Virus record (IMG/VR): IMGVR_UViG_2690316149_000014
Span: 1 to 17,767 of that record
Reading direction: 5' to 3' (one strand)
Source: a virus
Lineage: Duplodnaviria; Heunggongvirae; Uroviricota; Caudoviricetes
DNA length: 17,767 nt
The notes below the pieces were generated by a model that saw only the letters and a program-made list of their open reading frames with translations, was not told the DNA's origin and did not search any database. Below are positions 3,080-12,931 of the stretch, one piece after another. A program made the position numbers and the translations under genes. How positions within the stretch are numbered: the first letter of the stretch is position 1; each line of letters opens with the position of its first letter.

Positions 3080-3945
3080 CACTTCACCTCCTGCTGCGGT
3101 GCTGCTGGCATTTCACGCCAGTGCGTAACTGAGTGCGGATCCGGATATTCAGTGCCATCATCCCAGCGATTGCCATTCCACATTGCAGACCACATCTCAC
3201 CGTCTTCATACATGACCATTACCGGAATTAACTTATCCGGCATTCGCTCACTACAGCTTATCCAACCATCCGGAGTTACCGGAACTTGCGGAATGGCTGT
3301 CTGCTCTCGAACGTCATTAGGCGCTATAGGTTCTGCTGCCAACTGACTGGCATATTTGTTAATGGTAACGATAAGCTCTTGCTCAGCCTCATCCAGACAA
3401 TCACCGATACCTCGCCTGTCACCGTCAAAATCATCGAAATCGGCACGAATCTTGGCAACCTTCAGGATTGCGGACAACACTTCACTAGGAATTACCGGAT
3501 AGTTGGTTGACGTTTCCGCGATTTCCCGAAAATTATTGGTTGACGAATTCTTATTTTCCCGAAAGTTTCCGGACTGAAGCATGGCGGCGCGGCAGGCGTT
3601 CCAGCCTCTCACCTCTGCAATAGCGGCAACAGCATCAACCGCGTACATGCTAAGAGGATTAGGCATTGGTTTTTCTTCCGGTACTACTGGAACGGGGGGA
3701 GCGGCGTAGACCTCAATAATTCCATTATCAATAGGCCATTCTCCATCCTTGAGGTAGTCACTTGTGCCGTCAACTTGCTGTTCTGCAATGTGGAATGCAC
3801 CTATTGGTTTTGCTTCCAGCGATGCCAGAGCAATCCGTGCCAGTTCTTCCGCTTCTTCTGCTGGCAGTACAACGTTGCTACCCGGTCCGTATGTTTCGCG
3901 CCACTGCTTGATTGTCAGCAGTCGCTCTTTGGTTATAGTGGTCAT
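3079..3945 (-). CDS. Phage protein with C-terminal DUF551-like domain, 288 aa
   Basis: C-terminus (…DGWISCSERMPD…VTHWREMPAAP) resembles the recalled DUF551 signature of lambdoid early-region proteins; N-terminal two-thirds unassigned. Confidence 0.65.
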   Translation of the reverse strand: MTTITKERLLTIKQWRETYGPGSNVVLPAEEAEELARIALASLEAKPIGAFHIAEQQVDGTSDYLKDGEWPIDNGIIEVYAAPPVPVVPEEKPMPNPLSMYAVDAVAAIAEVRGWNACRAAMLQSGNFRENKNSSTNNFREIAETSTNYPVIPSEVLSAILKVAKIRADFDDFDGDRRGIGDCLDEAEQELIVTINKYASQLAAEPIAPNDVREQTAIPQVPVTPDGWISCSERMPDKLIPVMVMYEDGEMWSAMWNGNRWDDGTEYPDPHSVTHWREMPAAPQQEVK

Positions 3946-3955
3946 TTGTTATGCC

Positions 3956-4153
3956 TCAATACACGAAATCTGTTTTAAATTCATGGTTACATTCTGGACA
4001 GCATGTTTCGTAACCTTTTATTTCTTCACATGCCTGTTTAGCTCCAGAAAACTCCCAGAAATCTGGATCACAAAGCAGATCGAAATTGTGACCACATTTG
4101 GGACATTCGGTATCAAGTGACAGACTCCAGTAGGCAGTGATGTTTTTATCCAT
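3956..4153 (-). CDS. Small zinc-ribbon-like protein, 65 aa (two CPxCG-type pairs)
   Basis: Track ORF 3956..4186 overlaps the upstream gene; the internal ATG at 4153 has RBS AGGAG and sits 1 nt after the upstream TGA. Motifs CPKCGH…CCPECNH. Confidence 0.55.
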   Translation of the reverse strand: MDKNITAYWSLSLDTECPKCGHNFDLLCDPDFWEFSGAKQACEEIKGYETCCPECNHEFKTDFVY

Positions 4154-7205: not shown

Positions 7206-7913
7206 TTATGCCGCCTGTTTTAGTTCGTTAACTCTGATGTTCATTACCTGAACGCATTTAGCCTGCGCATCCTCATTGCCAGCCATTAATTGCCAGTCAT
7301 GCTGATAACGTTCTATGAGTTTTTTCTTGTCAGTTTCTGTTGATGCATAATCGCTGAAGTCTTTCAGGATTTGTTCGCAGTCAACCGATGGAGATTTCTG
7401 GTTGGTATTTTCTGGTGATGGTTTGTTATCTGATGCTGGGATTGCCCATCCCGGCAGCGATGGAGGGAGCCAGTAAAATCCTGTTCCATCTTTCAGTTTT
7501 GCCCTGTGCCATCCCTGCTTTTTATCGAGAGATGTTTGTGCGAAACCTTCCTCAAGGTTATACAGATACCGACCGATTCCCCATTGAACGGCAGCACGCT
7601 TCATTGCACCGGAACGACCACCTTTGACGGCTTCTACCTGCGTGTTTTCAGCAGCATCCCATTTGGTTACCCATTCGGAATCAATCTTGATTGATATGCC
7701 GCATTCAACTCCGCCGTTGTTGGGAATATCGCGGTATTCATTGCGCCATCCTGCTTTGCCGCAAACATCGTCCAGGCGTTTCATGATTGCCCTGTTCGTG
7801 ACATAAGCCAGCACCATAGCCCACACCTTTCCATCGCGTGTTTTACCGCTTTGCTGTATTCGCCATTCGATATCTTCAGGGCTGAATGGCTCATCGAATT
7901 TATTCAAATCCAT
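7206..7913 (-). CDS. Single-strand annealing protein, Rad52/22-like family, 235 aa
   Basis: Motif …GGRSGAMKRAAVQWGIGRYLY… recalled as typical of phage Rad52/22-type recombinases; RBS GAGGTGA; stop abuts the ssb ATG (TAAATG). Confidence 0.65.
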   Translation of the reverse strand: MDLNKFDEPFSPEDIEWRIQQSGKTRDGKVWAMVLAYVTNRAIMKRLDDVCGKAGWRNEYRDIPNNGGVECGISIKIDSEWVTKWDAAENTQVEAVKGGRSGAMKRAAVQWGIGRYLYNLEEGFAQTSLDKKQGWHRAKLKDGTGFYWLPPSLPGWAIPASDNKPSPENTNQKSPSVDCEQILKDFSDYASTETDKKKLIERYQHDWQLMAGNEDAQAKCVQVMNIRVNELKQAA

Positions 7914-8000
7914 AATTCACCTCAGAATGGACATGGCCCAAGGAAATAACGCTGATTTAATACTTCAGTCTTTGCCGCATTTAAAAATACGCGAACACCT

Positions 8001-9572: not shown

Positions 9573-10043
9573 CTAATAAAACACCCAGTTTTCTGTTTCT
9601 TGGTTGTGTCCAAAGTTATATTCAATATCTGGTGTTGATGTATCAATATTCTTCATCCCATCAACAAGAGTTGATACAACAGCCAAATCTTGTTTGATTC
9701 TCATTAAATGGTATTTCTTCCGGCGCAATAAACTCTCAATGGCAAGTTTCTTCGTTGGGAATGCAAAAGATCTTTCTGCATTTTTTGCTACTTTCTTAAT
9801 TGCATATCTATTTCTCCTTTGTTTCCATTCCTGTAACCACTGATTTGGTGCTGGTTTAAAATTAACAATCCAATGCGCAGGAACCAACCATGCATAATGC
9901 TCTGTCTGATGAAAAGCTATATATTGAAGTGCGAATATTTTTATCCCATCTTCTTCAACTGTCGCCTGGAATCTCCAGAAAACAGGCATTCCATCATGTT
10001 CAGTTTCTGATTCAGGAAAAGGTACGCTCCATGATTTTGTCAT
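9573..10043 (-). CDS. Hypothetical protein, 156 aa, in an AT-rich segment (moron-like)
   Basis: RBS GAGGTGAG; starts 8 nt after the N stop; local GC visibly lower than flanking genes; no recognisable motif. Confidence 0.65.
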   Translation of the reverse strand: MTKSWSVPFPESETEHDGMPVFWRFQATVEEDGIKIFALQYIAFHQTEHYAWLVPAHWIVNFKPAPNQWLQEWKQRRNRYAIKKVAKNAERSFAFPTKKLAIESLLRRKKYHLMRIKQDLAVVSTLVDGMKNIDTSTPDIEYNFGHNQETENWVFY

Positions 10044-10051
10044 ATCTCACC

Positions 10052-10351
10052 TCAAATAAGTGGTTTGCTGCCTAATTTCATTTTCTGGCGACCAACACAA
10101 GTCACACCCATTTCACTGCGTGGCTTGCGGTAGTAAATACGATTCTGTTTACTCTCTACTTCTTCTGCCTTCTTGCAGCGAAGGCTTCCGAGTGATGCTG
10201 CTTTATCTGCTCTGACGCAACCAGAGAGCTTTAGCGCAATTTTTCGCGCCAGTCGCTGCTCTTGCATTGCCTGTTCACGTTGAGCCTGTCTGCGTGCTCT
10301 GCGGCGATTTCTGGCGTTATCGTCAGCCAGATATGTAATGACTACTGTCAT
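10052..10351 (-). CDS. N: N-family transcription antiterminator, 99 aa, with arginine-rich motif
   Basis: Track ORF 10052..10423 trimmed to the ATG at 10351 (RBS GGAGG). N-terminal ARM …NARNRRRARRQAQREQ…; first gene downstream of pL/nutL; matching boxA/boxB sites on both sides of the immunity region. Confidence 0.65.
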   Translation of the reverse strand: MTVVITYLADDNARNRRRARRQAQREQAMQEQRLARKIALKLSGCVRADKAASLGSLRCKKAEEVESKQNRIYYRKPRSEMGVTCVGRQKMKLGSKPLI

Positions 10352-10391
10352 GTTGACCTCCGGGAAGGTACACATCCTTGTGTGTCGATGA

Positions 10392-10511
10392 TTATTTGTT
10401 TTTGCGTTCCCACATCCAGTCATCTACTTCAGACCAGATAGTGAAACCGAAGCAGATGGCGAATGTGGTAACTAAACCACCGAGAATTGGGTTGGTCATG
10501 ATGTCTAACAT
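10392..10511 (-). CDS. Possible small hydrophobic peptide, 39 aa, in the pL leader between nutL and N
   Basis: Below the track cutoff. RBS GAGGAA 6 nt before the ATG; one predicted TM helix. Could be a chance ORF. Confidence 0.25.
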   Translation of the reverse strand: MLDIMTNPILGGLVTTFAICFGFTIWSEVDDWMWERKNK

Positions 10512-10681
10512 TTTCTGTTCCTCAGATGATTAGCTTTGGTGGTGTGGTAGGTGGGAGACCCATTTCGACCCGCTTCGTCCGACTTCAATTCGGCAATAGT
10601 CCCGCAGGCCTCGCCGCTTTACGTGCGACATATTCCCGTCCATGAACCCTTCACCACACCCCAAAGCCAACTACTCTTTGG

Positions 10682-10724
10682 TTCCCGCATTTCGGCGGGA
10701 CAATCCCATCAATGTTAAAGAGCC
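10682..10724 (-). promoter_or_regulatory. nutL-like site: boxA (GGCTCTTTAACA) plus boxB hairpin (UCCCGC-CGAAAU-GCGGGA) in minus-strand transcript sense
   Basis: The boxB RNA is identical to the one at 12381-12398 on the opposite strand; boxA matches the CGCTCTTTA-type consensus. Confidence 0.6.
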
Positions 10725-10770
10725 TGCCAATCTTTTCCGTTTGGCTTCCAGCGTCCTGCTGATGGCTAAA

Positions 10771-10855
10771 GAATACTGTAGGTATTTTATTGTGTAAATA
10801 CCCAAGGTATTTATTTTTGATGAAATAATGATAAACAAATGAATACAAAGGATAT
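10771..10855. promoter_or_regulatory. OL operator cluster / pL region: three sites of form GAATAC-N5-GTATT
   Basis: Sites at ~10771-10786, 10797-10811 and a weaker one at ~10841-10855 share half sites with the OR operators. Confidence 0.55.
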
Positions 10856-10943
10856 TTATTTTTTCCGGTGTCTGCTTGTTCAGTGCTTTTTATGCGGGAT
10901 ATGTGAAGTGGATCCCGATAGCTATTGCTGCCGGGATTATGGG

Positions 10944-11312
10944 TTAGTCAGCGAAGGTTAAGACGAGAATTACCTTAATGATGTCTGCTACAACAGACAC
11001 GGCCATAGATAAACCAAAGACGATCCAAGCCATAGAGATGTCTTCACTACCATCGTATAGGGTTCCGTAATCACTGGTGTAAGGCGTAAATGTCGCGCCT
11101 TGATACAATAGGTATAAGCTTGATCCATAGAGGATAAATGCAGATATCCCTTGTATTGCTATGATCACTAGAATCATGAAACGAGCTGATCTATGCGCCC
11201 AAGCCTGGCTTATTTTTTCTGATAGAGATTTCGCAATAAAAGCATGCGCTAAGCCGTAAATTGTTGAGATTGCCAACATCCCCAAAAAGCTTGCTATAGC
11301 GGTTCCAACCAT
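10944..11312 (-). CDS. Small polytopic membrane protein, 122 aa, ~4 TM helices, in the rex position immediately downstream of cI
   Basis: RBS AAGGGGG; begins 19 nt after the cI stop on the same strand, upstream of OL/pL. No family recognised. Confidence 0.65.
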   Translation of the reverse strand: MVGTAIASFLGMLAISTIYGLAHAFIAKSLSEKISQAWAHRSARFMILVIIAIQGISAFILYGSSLYLLYQGATFTPYTSDYGTLYDGSEDISMAWIVFGLSMAVSVVADIIKVILVLTFAD

Positions 11313-11330
11313 AAGCGCCCCCTTGCGTGA

Positions 11331-12047
11331 TCAAACCAGTCTGAGTTTTGTCTCAATTGCAACGCCTATAATCTTGCAGTTTCCATTGATTGGCACGAGA
11401 GGCCATGCAGGATTAAGTCCCTTGAGGTATTTATTTCCGCCGTCGATTATCAGCTTCTTGAATGTTGCTTCGTTAGAGTCAGAAAGTTTTGCTATGACCA
11501 AGCTGCCGTTGATCGCCTCCCTTCCGGTATCGAAAAGAACGAATGTTCCCTCTGGAATGCTTAACCCAACCGGTGCCGTCATTGAATCACCTTCCACTTT
11601 AAGCCAGAACGCATTACCTTGAATATGCGCGTCAGACTCAAGCCAAACATCTATGTCTTTAATGGTGTATGGTTCGCATGCTTCACACCACGAGCCAGCC
11701 TGGATACTGCTTAACACCGGATACCTCTTTCCTGCTCTGTATTCCCCTGCATACCTTACGTTGGCATCGCTCTTAAGGCTTTCTGCCTGTTCTGCAACCT
11801 TGGCAGCAATTGACTGGCTAAAATCAGCAATTGAGACTTGCAACAATCGTGCAAAACCAGATGCAACCTCAACGTTTAGCGCGTTTCTGCCATTAAGATA
11901 ATGCCCTACCGCTCCTTGGGTGATACCCAGTTCATCAGCGATTGAGTATTGGGTTATTCCCAATTCTTTCTTTTTTGACTCATACAAAGCCTTAAGCCGC
12001 TTAGCGTCTTCGAGCTGTTCTGTCGTCAGTGATTTTTTATTTTCCAT
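11331..12047 (-). CDS. cI: CI-type prophage repressor: N-terminal XRE-family HTH plus C-terminal LexA/S24-like autocleavage domain, 238 aa
   Basis: HTH …QYSIADELGITQGAVGHYLNG…; C-terminal S24 signature …GDSM…/…KL…; no SD before the ATG (leaderless, as for lambda pRM); divergent from cro across an operator region. Confidence 0.9.
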   Translation of the reverse strand: MENKKSLTTEQLEDAKRLKALYESKKKELGITQYSIADELGITQGAVGHYLNGRNALNVEVASGFARLLQVSIADFSQSIAAKVAEQAESLKSDANVRYAGEYRAGKRYPVLSSIQAGSWCEACEPYTIKDIDVWLESDAHIQGNAFWLKVEGDSMTAPVGLSIPEGTFVLFDTGREAINGSLVIAKLSDSNEATFKKLIIDGGNKYLKGLNPAWPLVPINGNCKIIGVAIETKLRLV

Positions 12048-12082
12048 AGCTTAATTCTAATAGCTAAGGTACTTAAACTAAA

Positions 12083-12123
12083 AATACCCTGAGTATTGAT
12101 TGCTTTGAATACCTGTAGTATTC
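12083..12123. promoter_or_regulatory. OR operators with divergent pRM/pR promoters
   Basis: Two sites, AATACCCTGAGTATT (~12083-12097) and GAATACCTGTAGTATTC (~12107-12123), with centres ~25 bp apart. Candidate pR -35 TTGATT / -10 TATTCT; candidate pRM -10 TAGAAT placed for a leaderless cI start. Confidence 0.6.
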
Positions 12124-12153
12124 TTTGTTCATGGTTAATAACGGAGAGTGCAT

Positions 12154-12348
12154 ATGATTCGAATGACACTTGCCGATTACGCCAAAATCCATGGACAGGC
12201 TAAAGCAGCCAGTGACTTTGGTGTAATCCAGTGCGCTATCAGCAAGGCCATTCTGGCAGGCCGTAACATCATGGTTACGGTAAAGCCTGATGGCAGTGTG
12301 ATTGGAGAGGAAGTTCGTCCTTTCCCAAGCAACAAGAAAAACAAATAG
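12154..12348 (+). CDS. cro: Cro repressor, 64 aa from ATG 12154 (track ORF begins at GTG 12148)
   Basis: Recalled similarity to lambda Cro throughout; RBS GGAGAG upstream. Confidence 0.85.
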
Positions 12349-12354
12349 TAACAC

Positions 12355-12398
12355 CGCTCTTTAACAGTCATGGTCCTCATTCCCGCCGAAATGCGGGA
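12355..12398 (+). promoter_or_regulatory. nutR-like site: boxA (CGCTCTTTAACA) plus boxB hairpin (TCCCGC-CGAAAT-GCGGGA)
   Basis: Immediately downstream of the cro stop; boxB identical to the nutL copy in transcript sense. Confidence 0.6.
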
Positions 12399-12456
12399 AT
12401 ACAACGCGCATAAGTTGATGCGCATAACTTCTTATTAGTTAAGGAAATACTTACAT

Positions 12457-12735
12457 ATGCAACTTACAAGTACTCGCAAGAAAGCGAATGCAATTACAAG
12501 CAACATCCTGAATCGAATTGCTGTACGTGGTCAGCGAAAGGTTGCCGACGCGTTAGGGATTAATGAATCGCAAATTTCGCGATGGAAAGACAGCTTCATC
12601 CCAAAAATGGGAATGCTTCTGGCTGTTCTTGAATGGGGTGTTGAAGACGAGGAGTTGGCGGAACTGGCTAAGAAAGTAGCCAGAATGCTGACAAAAGAAA
12701 AAGCCCCGAAGAACGGCGAATTCTTCGAGGCCTGA
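12457..12735 (+). CDS. cII: CII transcriptional activator, 92 aa
   Basis: Recalled similarity to lambda CII (…SQISRWK…IPK..MLLAVLEWGV…); position right after cro/nutR. Confidence 0.85.
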   Translation: MQLTSTRKKANAITSNILNRIAVRGQRKVADALGINESQISRWKDSFIPKMGMLLAVLEWGVEDEELAELAKKVARMLTKEKAPKNGEFFEA

Positions 12736-12769
12736 TGTAGAAAGACTGGATCAATCCACAGGAGTAATT

Positions 12770-12931
12770 ATGACAAAACGTCGTAAGAAATACCAGGAAA
12801 AAGAAGAGATTCGACACCCTGATTCACCTGAGGGATTAGTGGTAGCCGCAGCAAATAACAGGGCGTTCGCAGAGCGCCTTGTTGGTGTTTACAGACTAGC
12901 CAAAGCAGGAGTGAAACATGGGCGTCGTTAA
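12770..12931 (+). CDS. Hypothetical small basic protein, 53 aa (MTKRRKKYQEKEEIRHPDSPEGL…)
   Basis: Below the track cutoff. RBS AGGAG 6 nt before the ATG; 3' end overlaps the initiator gene start by 14 nt. Confidence 0.4.
   Translation: MTKRRKKYQEKEEIRHPDSPEGLVVAAANNRAFAERLVGVYRLAKAGVKHGRR

Follow-up and report, generated by a model that had tools for sequence, protein, structure and literature searches.

A predicted HK620-type pL/OL operator cluster in a lambdoid prophage and a probable correction of its third operator

The interval 10763-10864 of the window, the 17,767-base stretch of DNA analyzed here, is very probably the leftward promoter and operator cluster (pL and OL) of a lambdoid prophage with the immunity module of coliphage HK620, a function predicted from sequence. 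The interpretation as pL/OL is not new, being already on record in the HK620 annotation. The analysis adds a single point, a probable correction to that annotation, since its OL3 and tIMM features appear to be misplaced and the third operator is likely to lie at 10841-10857.

Operators, promoter and match to HK620

The original prediction had placed three related strings in this segment, GAATACTGTAGGTATT (10771-10786), AATACCCAAGGTATT (10797-10811) and a degenerate GAATACAAAGGATAT (10841-10855), and direct reading of the window agreed. As 17-mers, these are OL1, GAATACTGTAGGTATTT, at 10771-10787, the promoter-proximal site at -8 to -24 from the inferred pL start; OL2, AAATACCCAAGGTATTT, at 10796-10812 (-33 to -49); and the proposed OL3, GAATACAAAGGATATTT, at 10841-10857 (-78 to -94). 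Between the divergent cI and cro genes lie OR3 (TAATAGCTAAGGTACTT, 12058-12074), OR2 (AAATACCCTGAGTATTG, 12082-12098) and OR1 (GAATACCTGTAGTATTC, 12107-12123). All three OL and three OR sites conform to a 17-bp dyad with the consensus RAATAC-N5-GTATTY, which bears out the claim that OL and OR share their half-sites. The centers of OL1 and OL2 are 25 bp apart and those of OL2 and the proposed OL3 45 bp apart, while the spacings in the OR cluster (12058-12123) are 24 and 25 bp. The first site had also been described as a near duplicate of an OR site, and the reverse complement of OL1 indeed matches OR1 at 14 of 17 positions and OR2 at 13 of 17.

The exact motif AATAC-N5-GTATT was found four times in the whole window, with starts at 10772, 10797, 12083 and 12108, and every match was inside OL or OR (OL1 and OL2 among them). 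By our estimate (17,753 positions × 4^-10), about 0.02 exact matches are expected by chance. The third OL site was the sole match in the window with one mismatch. A repeat search conducted without prior input recovered a 22-nt family at 10772, 10797, 10842 and 12083, in which the OL members are 25 and 45 bp apart, as well as a 45-nt inverted repeat (10768-10812 against 12082-12126) that pairs OL1-OL2 with OR2-OR1.

A promoter had been expected on the minus strand of this segment, and a consensus scan of 10400-12500 gave one sigma-70-like match there, from 10798 to 10770. It consists of a -35 hexamer TTTACA (10798-10793), a 17-bp spacer and a -10 hexamer TATTCT (10775-10770). The two hexamers agree with the consensus at 9 of 12 positions, and matches of this kind are no more numerous in the region than chance would produce. 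OL1 overlaps the -10 hexamer, and OL2 overlaps or touches the -35 hexamer. The predicted promoter falls inside the pL annotation of HK620 and reads away from cI, into nutL and N. In diverged relatives, described below, the -35 (TGTAAA on the plus strand) is invariant and the -10 reads AGAATA or AGAGTA on the plus strand. The window's +1 was placed at A10763 on the minus strand, 7 nt past the -10 hexamer, since the start-site sequence GCGTCCTGCTGAT is identical to that of lambda. The lambda position sharing this sequence is presumably the +1 of lambda pL.

A -10-like hexamer, TAGAAT, is also present on the minus strand at 12059-12054, 6 nt ahead of the cI ATG at 12047 (region 12045-12059). This spacing suggests a leaderless cI mRNA made from a pRM-like promoter that OR3 overlaps, as in lambda. 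The HK620 record carries no annotation of this hexamer.

The match to HK620 is close. Bases 10658-10865 are identical to the phage base for base except for an SNP at 10734, and the immunity region as a whole (10649-12779) shows 98.4% identity over 2.1 kb. The bases of the OR region are identical to those of HK620 and mEpX2. The reference record for HK620, GenBank AF335538 (genome: Clark et al. 2001, J Mol Biol 311:657, as cited in PMC2629481), already labels pL, OL1, OL2, OL3, tIMM, nutL, N, hkaS, cI, OR3-OR1, cro, nutR and cII. When mapped from the record onto the window, nutL falls at 10683-10724, pL at 10763-10798, OL1 at 10771-10787, OL2 at 10796-10812, OL3 at 10818-10834 and tIMM at 10831-10861. 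The record thus annotates OL1 and OL2 at the same bases as the first two predicted sites, and these sites are therefore the annotated OL1 and OL2. With the record's pL also lying across them and a single SNP separating the two sequences, the reading of the segment as pL/OL stood. The operator and promoter features of HK620 were themselves apparently assigned from sequence, and a search of the accessible literature for published footprint, reporter or transcript-mapping data on HK620-type operators found none.

The expected ligand of OL and OR is the cI repressor (11331-12047, minus strand), in which Pfam recognized HTH_3 and Peptidase_S24 domains. Over its first 109 residues it shows 100% identity to the repressors of HK140, phage HF4s and an Stx2c phage, and 80 IMG/VR loci share its residues 1-90 exactly. 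Compared to lambda cI, it shows 50% identity over residues 4-103 and 44% overall. Q33, Q44 and N55 are conserved between the two proteins, but residues of helix 3 differ (S45G, G46A and A49H); its Ala-Gly site and Ser/Lys dyad have aligned counterparts in lambda cI. The expected second ligand is Cro, encoded at 12154-12348 on the plus strand and belonging to the lambda Cro family (PF09048, E = 3.6e-26). Between cI and OL lies a gene for a membrane-like protein of 122 aa (10944-11312, minus strand; phrog_6534, E = 1e-78) that matches hkaS of HK620, and cII was also recognized in the protein family searches.

The window therefore holds the parts of a lambdoid OL/pL region: half-sites shared by the two flanks of cI, operators overlapping promoter hexamers (these being a consensus match only), an adjacent HTH and S24 repressor with a Cro, and nutL followed by N. 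Its OL and OR sites are identical to those of HK620, and the first 109 residues of its repressor to those of other phages with this module, which places it in the HK620 immunity type. These findings confirm the presence of a genetic switch of the standard lambda type that has the specificity of HK620. The module is common among E. coli prophages, Stx2c-converting phages included; it was found in 146 of 5,426 complete E. coli genomes at a coverage of at least 80%, and mEpX2, HK140, HK630 and HF4s carry it as well.

nutL, the leader and N

The cluster had been predicted to lie upstream of nutL and N, and both were located on the minus strand. nutL (10684-10723) is made up of boxA, GCTCTTTAAC, and boxB, CCCGCCGAAATGCGGG, and HK620 annotates nutL at this place. 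The combined boxA and boxB pattern matched solely nutL and its exact twin nutR (12356-12397), and the two were also recovered as inverted repeats by the repeat search. Among the regulatory genes of the pL operon, that for the N antiterminator (10052-10351; phrog_271, E = 1e-36) comes first. Bases 10160-10362, comprising the N-terminal part of N and 11 nt upstream, are 99.5% identical to HK620 N. The N region (10052-10423) is a hybrid, differing from HK620 outside 10160-10362.

Mosaic junctions concentrate on the immediate downstream side of nutL; 68 loci have theirs at about 10649-10657 and 8 loci at 10681. Since they lie just past nutL, the block from nutL to nutR travels as a unit. A 139-nt block at 10530-10668 is a separate mosaic module common to 933W-like and lambda-immunity phages. 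The leader between nutL and the next ORF (10525-10675, minus strand) folds into a long stem with a dG of -61.5 kcal/mol and a z of -3.7. The base of this stem, GGCUUUGGGGUGUGG...CCACACCACCAAAGC, resembles a sequence of the lambda N leader that we take to be an RNase III site. In Hafnia phage Pocitis76 (L003), a tRNA-Gly lies within the equivalent leader stem (3923-4002 of that locus). A tRNA scan of the window from 10300 to 10900 found none, and an Rfam scan of 10000-12800 in E-value mode returned only a spurious match to a eukaryotic snoRNA (E = 0.64). Between the leader stem and N, a hydrophobic ORF of 39 aa, MLDIMTNPILGG..., whose ribosome-binding site is good, is encoded at 10392-10511 on the minus strand. 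Its match is to phrog_7482 (E = 8e-25), a family of unknown function, and HK620 lacks such a gene at that position.

Placement of the third operator

The degenerate third site of the original prediction is likely to be a real OL3, occupying 10841-10857. Motif score, polymorphism and conservation in diverged relatives all support it. For the motif score, a symmetric 17-bp position weight matrix was trained on the five sites other than the third OL site. The proposed OL3 scored 11.4, which placed it sixth of 17,751 positions in the window and above all others outside the training set. The other five sites scored 17-24, so the proposed OL3 is weaker. Local dinucleotide shuffles reached 11.4 in 85 of 20,000 trials with a 131-nt segment and in 19 of 20,000 with a 60-nt segment of 23% GC, giving p ~0.001-0.004. 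The OL3 of the GenBank record, at 10818-10834, scored -19 and has no motif.

Polymorphism was examined in 81 same-immunity loci, taken from 80 IMG/VR contigs with cI residues 1-90 identical, HK620 and mEpX2, one of which had no match. The IMG/VR scan gave only loci with these residues identical, so the set is informative on polymorphism and not on covariation. Among the 81 loci, the 17-mer of the proposed OL3 had one singleton variant. In the stretch annotated as OL3 in GenBank, A and G occurred about 50:50 at position 10820 and 4 loci lacked 1 bp at 10818, and this stretch was not conserved in the diverged relatives. Lacking the motif, polymorphic and not conserved, 10818-10834 finds no support as an operator. 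It lies at -55 to -71, close to the -53 to -69 of lambda OL3, and was therefore probably assigned by positional analogy with lambda. The window and HK620 are identical at 10818-10834, so the lack of support for an operator where AF335538 puts OL3 counts against the annotation and not against membership of the HK620 type. An adjacent OL3 in the lambda style, about 20-24 bp from OL2, was not found, the best third site being 45 bp away.

The proposed OL3 lies within the stretch that GenBank labels tIMM. Over 10818-10861, which corresponds to 7888-7931 of AF335538, the OL3 and tIMM features look misplaced, and the misplacement has likely been passed on to related records. OL3 and tIMM features derived from HK620, propagated since 2001, probably mislabel the third operator.

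More distant relatives provided the test of conservation. One scan of GTDB genomes gave 21 prophage loci, 20 of them with cI N-terminal domains 67-84% identical to that of the window. In Pocitis76, this domain is 79% identical, the recognition helix is nearly identical and the Cro HTH is identical. In most of these relatives the same motif recurs on both sides of cI, three times immediately upstream (OR) and as a cluster downstream (OL). The distance from OL2 to OL1 is 25 bp in all these lineages, while that from OL3 to OL2 varies: it is 45 bp in the window and in Serratia (L004), Pantoea (L007) and Tatumella (L009 and L010), 29 bp in Pocitis76, and 21 bp in Pectobacterium (L006) and Pantoea (L008 and L011). 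The genes between cI and OL3 are different in every locus of the 45/25 arrangement.

The five 45/25 sequences, the window and four relatives, were aligned without gaps and mean pairwise identity was calculated. The half-site columns of OL1, OL2 and OL3 were 97%, 95% and 83% identical, respectively, in contrast to 42%, 36% and 46% for the five central columns of the same sites. Conserved half-sites around variable centers are the pattern of an operator that binds a dimeric HTH protein and is kept by selection. The 28-bp spacer that holds the GenBank OL3 had an identity of 57%. Abutting and overlapping the proposed OL3, at 10854-10864 or -91 to -101, is a T-run, ATTTATTTTTT, that reads AAAAAATAAAT on the pL strand, and the same 11-mer is found at -91 to -101 from the pL start in lambda. 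The T-run is kept in the diverged relatives, and past it, in the 20 bp that start 10 bp beyond OL3, identity falls to 26%. The T-run also marks the boundary where similarity vanishes and morons are inserted. In the 21-bp lineages and in lambda, a TGAATTTA-type sequence occupies the 45-bp position with the left half-site missing, and each lineage therefore has a single third site.

Relatives from Morganella, Providencia and Proteus were not used as support for the 45-bp spacing, their HTH and site arrangement being different. Four Morganella loci (L018, L020, L021 and L023) and L022 have an HTH of the type QQSIAD... and are more distant. In L018 and L020-L023, OL comprises two strong sites 45-47 bp apart directly past the cI terminator, with the T-rich flank oriented oppositely, which is a different OL architecture.

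Two features temper the assignment of the third site. The 45-bp spacing amounts to about 4.3 helical turns and offers no obvious phasing argument for cooperativity. The right half-site overlaps the T-run, which even lambda retains outside any operator, so part of the conservation of OL3 could have another cause. Inspection by eye and the promoter scan gave no convincing candidate for a further promoter across OL3, whichever the strand, and no convincing IHF core was found in the 28-bp OL2-OL3 spacer, which is not conserved.

Another explanation, which we regard as unlikely, is that OL1 and OL2 are real operators but the third dyad is an AT-rich terminator hairpin (tIMM) ending the cI-hkaS transcript, with the true OL3 at 10818-10834 or absent altogether. 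The dyad does reach into its flanks (AAATGAATA...TATTTATTT), a U-rich stretch follows on the minus strand, and RNA folding pairs the third-dyad region within a longer imperfect hairpin. However, that hairpin is almost all A-U, the structure obtained by folding 10800-10960 is weak, AU-rich and only marginally ahead of shuffled sequences (z = -1.98), and a terminator scan made no call in the OL region. The GenBank coordinates of tIMM (about 10831-10861) and OL3 (10818-10834) agree with this explanation, but the latter stretch has the score, polymorphism and lack of conservation described above. Phages of the 933W type are reported to manage with two OL sites, which also speaks for it. Against this, the columns kept at the 45-bp position in the relatives are the operator half-sites, with the center variable, and in relatives with a 21-bp OL3 the terminator is a distinct, GC-rich one lying further upstream, with no left half-site at 45 bp. 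Operator and terminator roles are not mutually exclusive, and the third dyad, while serving as the probable OL3, may also belong to a weak hairpin rich in A and U.

The original prediction also held that the 65-aa ORF at 10651-10848 (minus strand) is not a gene, and this is most likely correct. The ORF starts with a TTG inside OL3 and spans OL1, OL2, the pL start and nutL. We consider it very improbable that read-through of the cI-hkaS transcript expresses it as a genuine small gene, with the dyads partly coding. It is open at 65 aa in most same-immunity loci, but it is frameshifted in 5 and truncated in 8 at the alternative mosaic junction, and its SNPs in these loci (9 synonymous and 28 nonsynonymous, spread over the codon positions as 10/14/13) give no coding signature. 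Some phage submissions place hypothetical proteins in the interval, yet the ORF was called neither by the authors of the HK620 record nor in a RefSeq PGAP annotation. Pfam and PHROG searches gave no match for the ORF, while every neighboring gene has a family. The TTG has no visible ribosome-binding site, and the relatives have the operators but not the ORF. Furthermore, the ORF contains the pL start, and pL transcripts therefore cannot encode it. For annotation, it should not be called as a gene.

That the dyads are chance palindromes of AT-rich intergenic DNA with no regulatory role is hardly credible and has already been effectively refuted: the DNA is indeed AT-rich (23% GC across 10813-10872) and, with two mismatches allowed, the window holds 14 motif matches against 7.7 expected, which is not significant, but all four exact matches sit in the two expected control regions flanking the repressor gene, the sites and the promoters are arranged as mirror images, even the weakest site beats local shuffles (p ~0.001-0.004), and the sites are conserved across genera.

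Proposed mechanism and comparison with HK620, lambda and HK022

In the lambda scheme, cI occludes pL, its autocleavage releases the promoter, and N acts at nutL. By analogy, cI dimers in the lysogen would bind OL1 and OL2 cooperatively, covering the -10 and -35 hexamers and excluding RNA polymerase. This binding would silence the leftward operon, that is, nutL, the 39-aa ORF, N and the recombination genes. Upon RecA-stimulated autocleavage of cI, pL would fire and N would modify RNA polymerase at nutL, and Cro would bind the same operators during lytic growth. OL3, at -78 to -94, would most likely add cooperative repressor occupancy, on the model of lambda and HK022. Such occupancy could act through a small loop to OL1-OL2, through the OL-OR loop of about 1.3 kb, or through both, and would help to set cI expression. 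OL and OR, about 1.3 kb apart, probably loop. Loops between OL and OR are established experimentally for lambda, HK022 and phiKO2 (PMC8053113). Repressor binding, cooperativity, looping and promoter activity are all inferred here from the lambda biology behind this mechanism (PMC8951638, PMC3708714, PMC8053113).

A distal UP element has been described near lambda OL (PMC3708714, PMC8053113), and the T-run may be its counterpart in the window. The proposed OL3 adjoins this T-run, which matches -91 to -101 of lambda, and its occupancy might therefore gate the element, a speculation that we consider doubtful. In its full form, OL3 would have been relocated in the HK620 lineage from the lambda position (-61) to -86, where bound repressor would gate the UP-like tract. 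If this were true, repressor at OL3 could switch off UP-assisted firing of pL, and OL3 could control a UP-dependent, loop-mediated boost of pRM. The autoregulation of cI would then be wired differently from the OL3-OR3 tetramer of lambda, and the presence of one third site per lineage, at 21, 29 or 45 bp, would represent operator turnover under a conserved requirement.

Compared to HK620, OL1, OL2, pL, nutL, hkaS, cI, OR1-3 and cro of the window map one-to-one. The two differ to the left of a mosaic junction at about 10657, beyond which the sequences diverge, and in the hybrid N gene of the window.

In lambda, a cI octamer loops OL to OR, and the pL region of that phage is visibly homologous to that of the window. 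Compared to lambda, the window shares the position of O1 on the -10 and O2 on the -35, with OL2 at -33 to -49 in both, as well as the start-site sequence GCGTCCTGCTGAT, the T-run at -91 to -101, the 17-bp dyads, and nutL and N downstream. It differs in the half-site, which is RAATAC(C/T) in the window and TATCACC in lambda. The center of OL3 is at -86 in the window, 45 bp from OL2, compared to -61 and 20 bp in lambda, and OL and OR are separated by about 1.3 kb instead of 2.3 kb.

The closest parallel to the proposed OL3 is HK022, where 53 bp separate OL2 and OL3 and loop-like DNase I sensitivities are seen in the gap (PMC8053113). In both, a third lambdoid operator is set apart from OL2 by a long gap. 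The gap in the window is shorter, at 28 bp, and the repressor specificity and operator sequence differ from those of HK022. If the placement at 10841-10857 is correct, the distant OL3 would be the second natural non-adjacent third operator after that of HK022 and would bear on the short and long DNA loops formed by lambdoid repressors.
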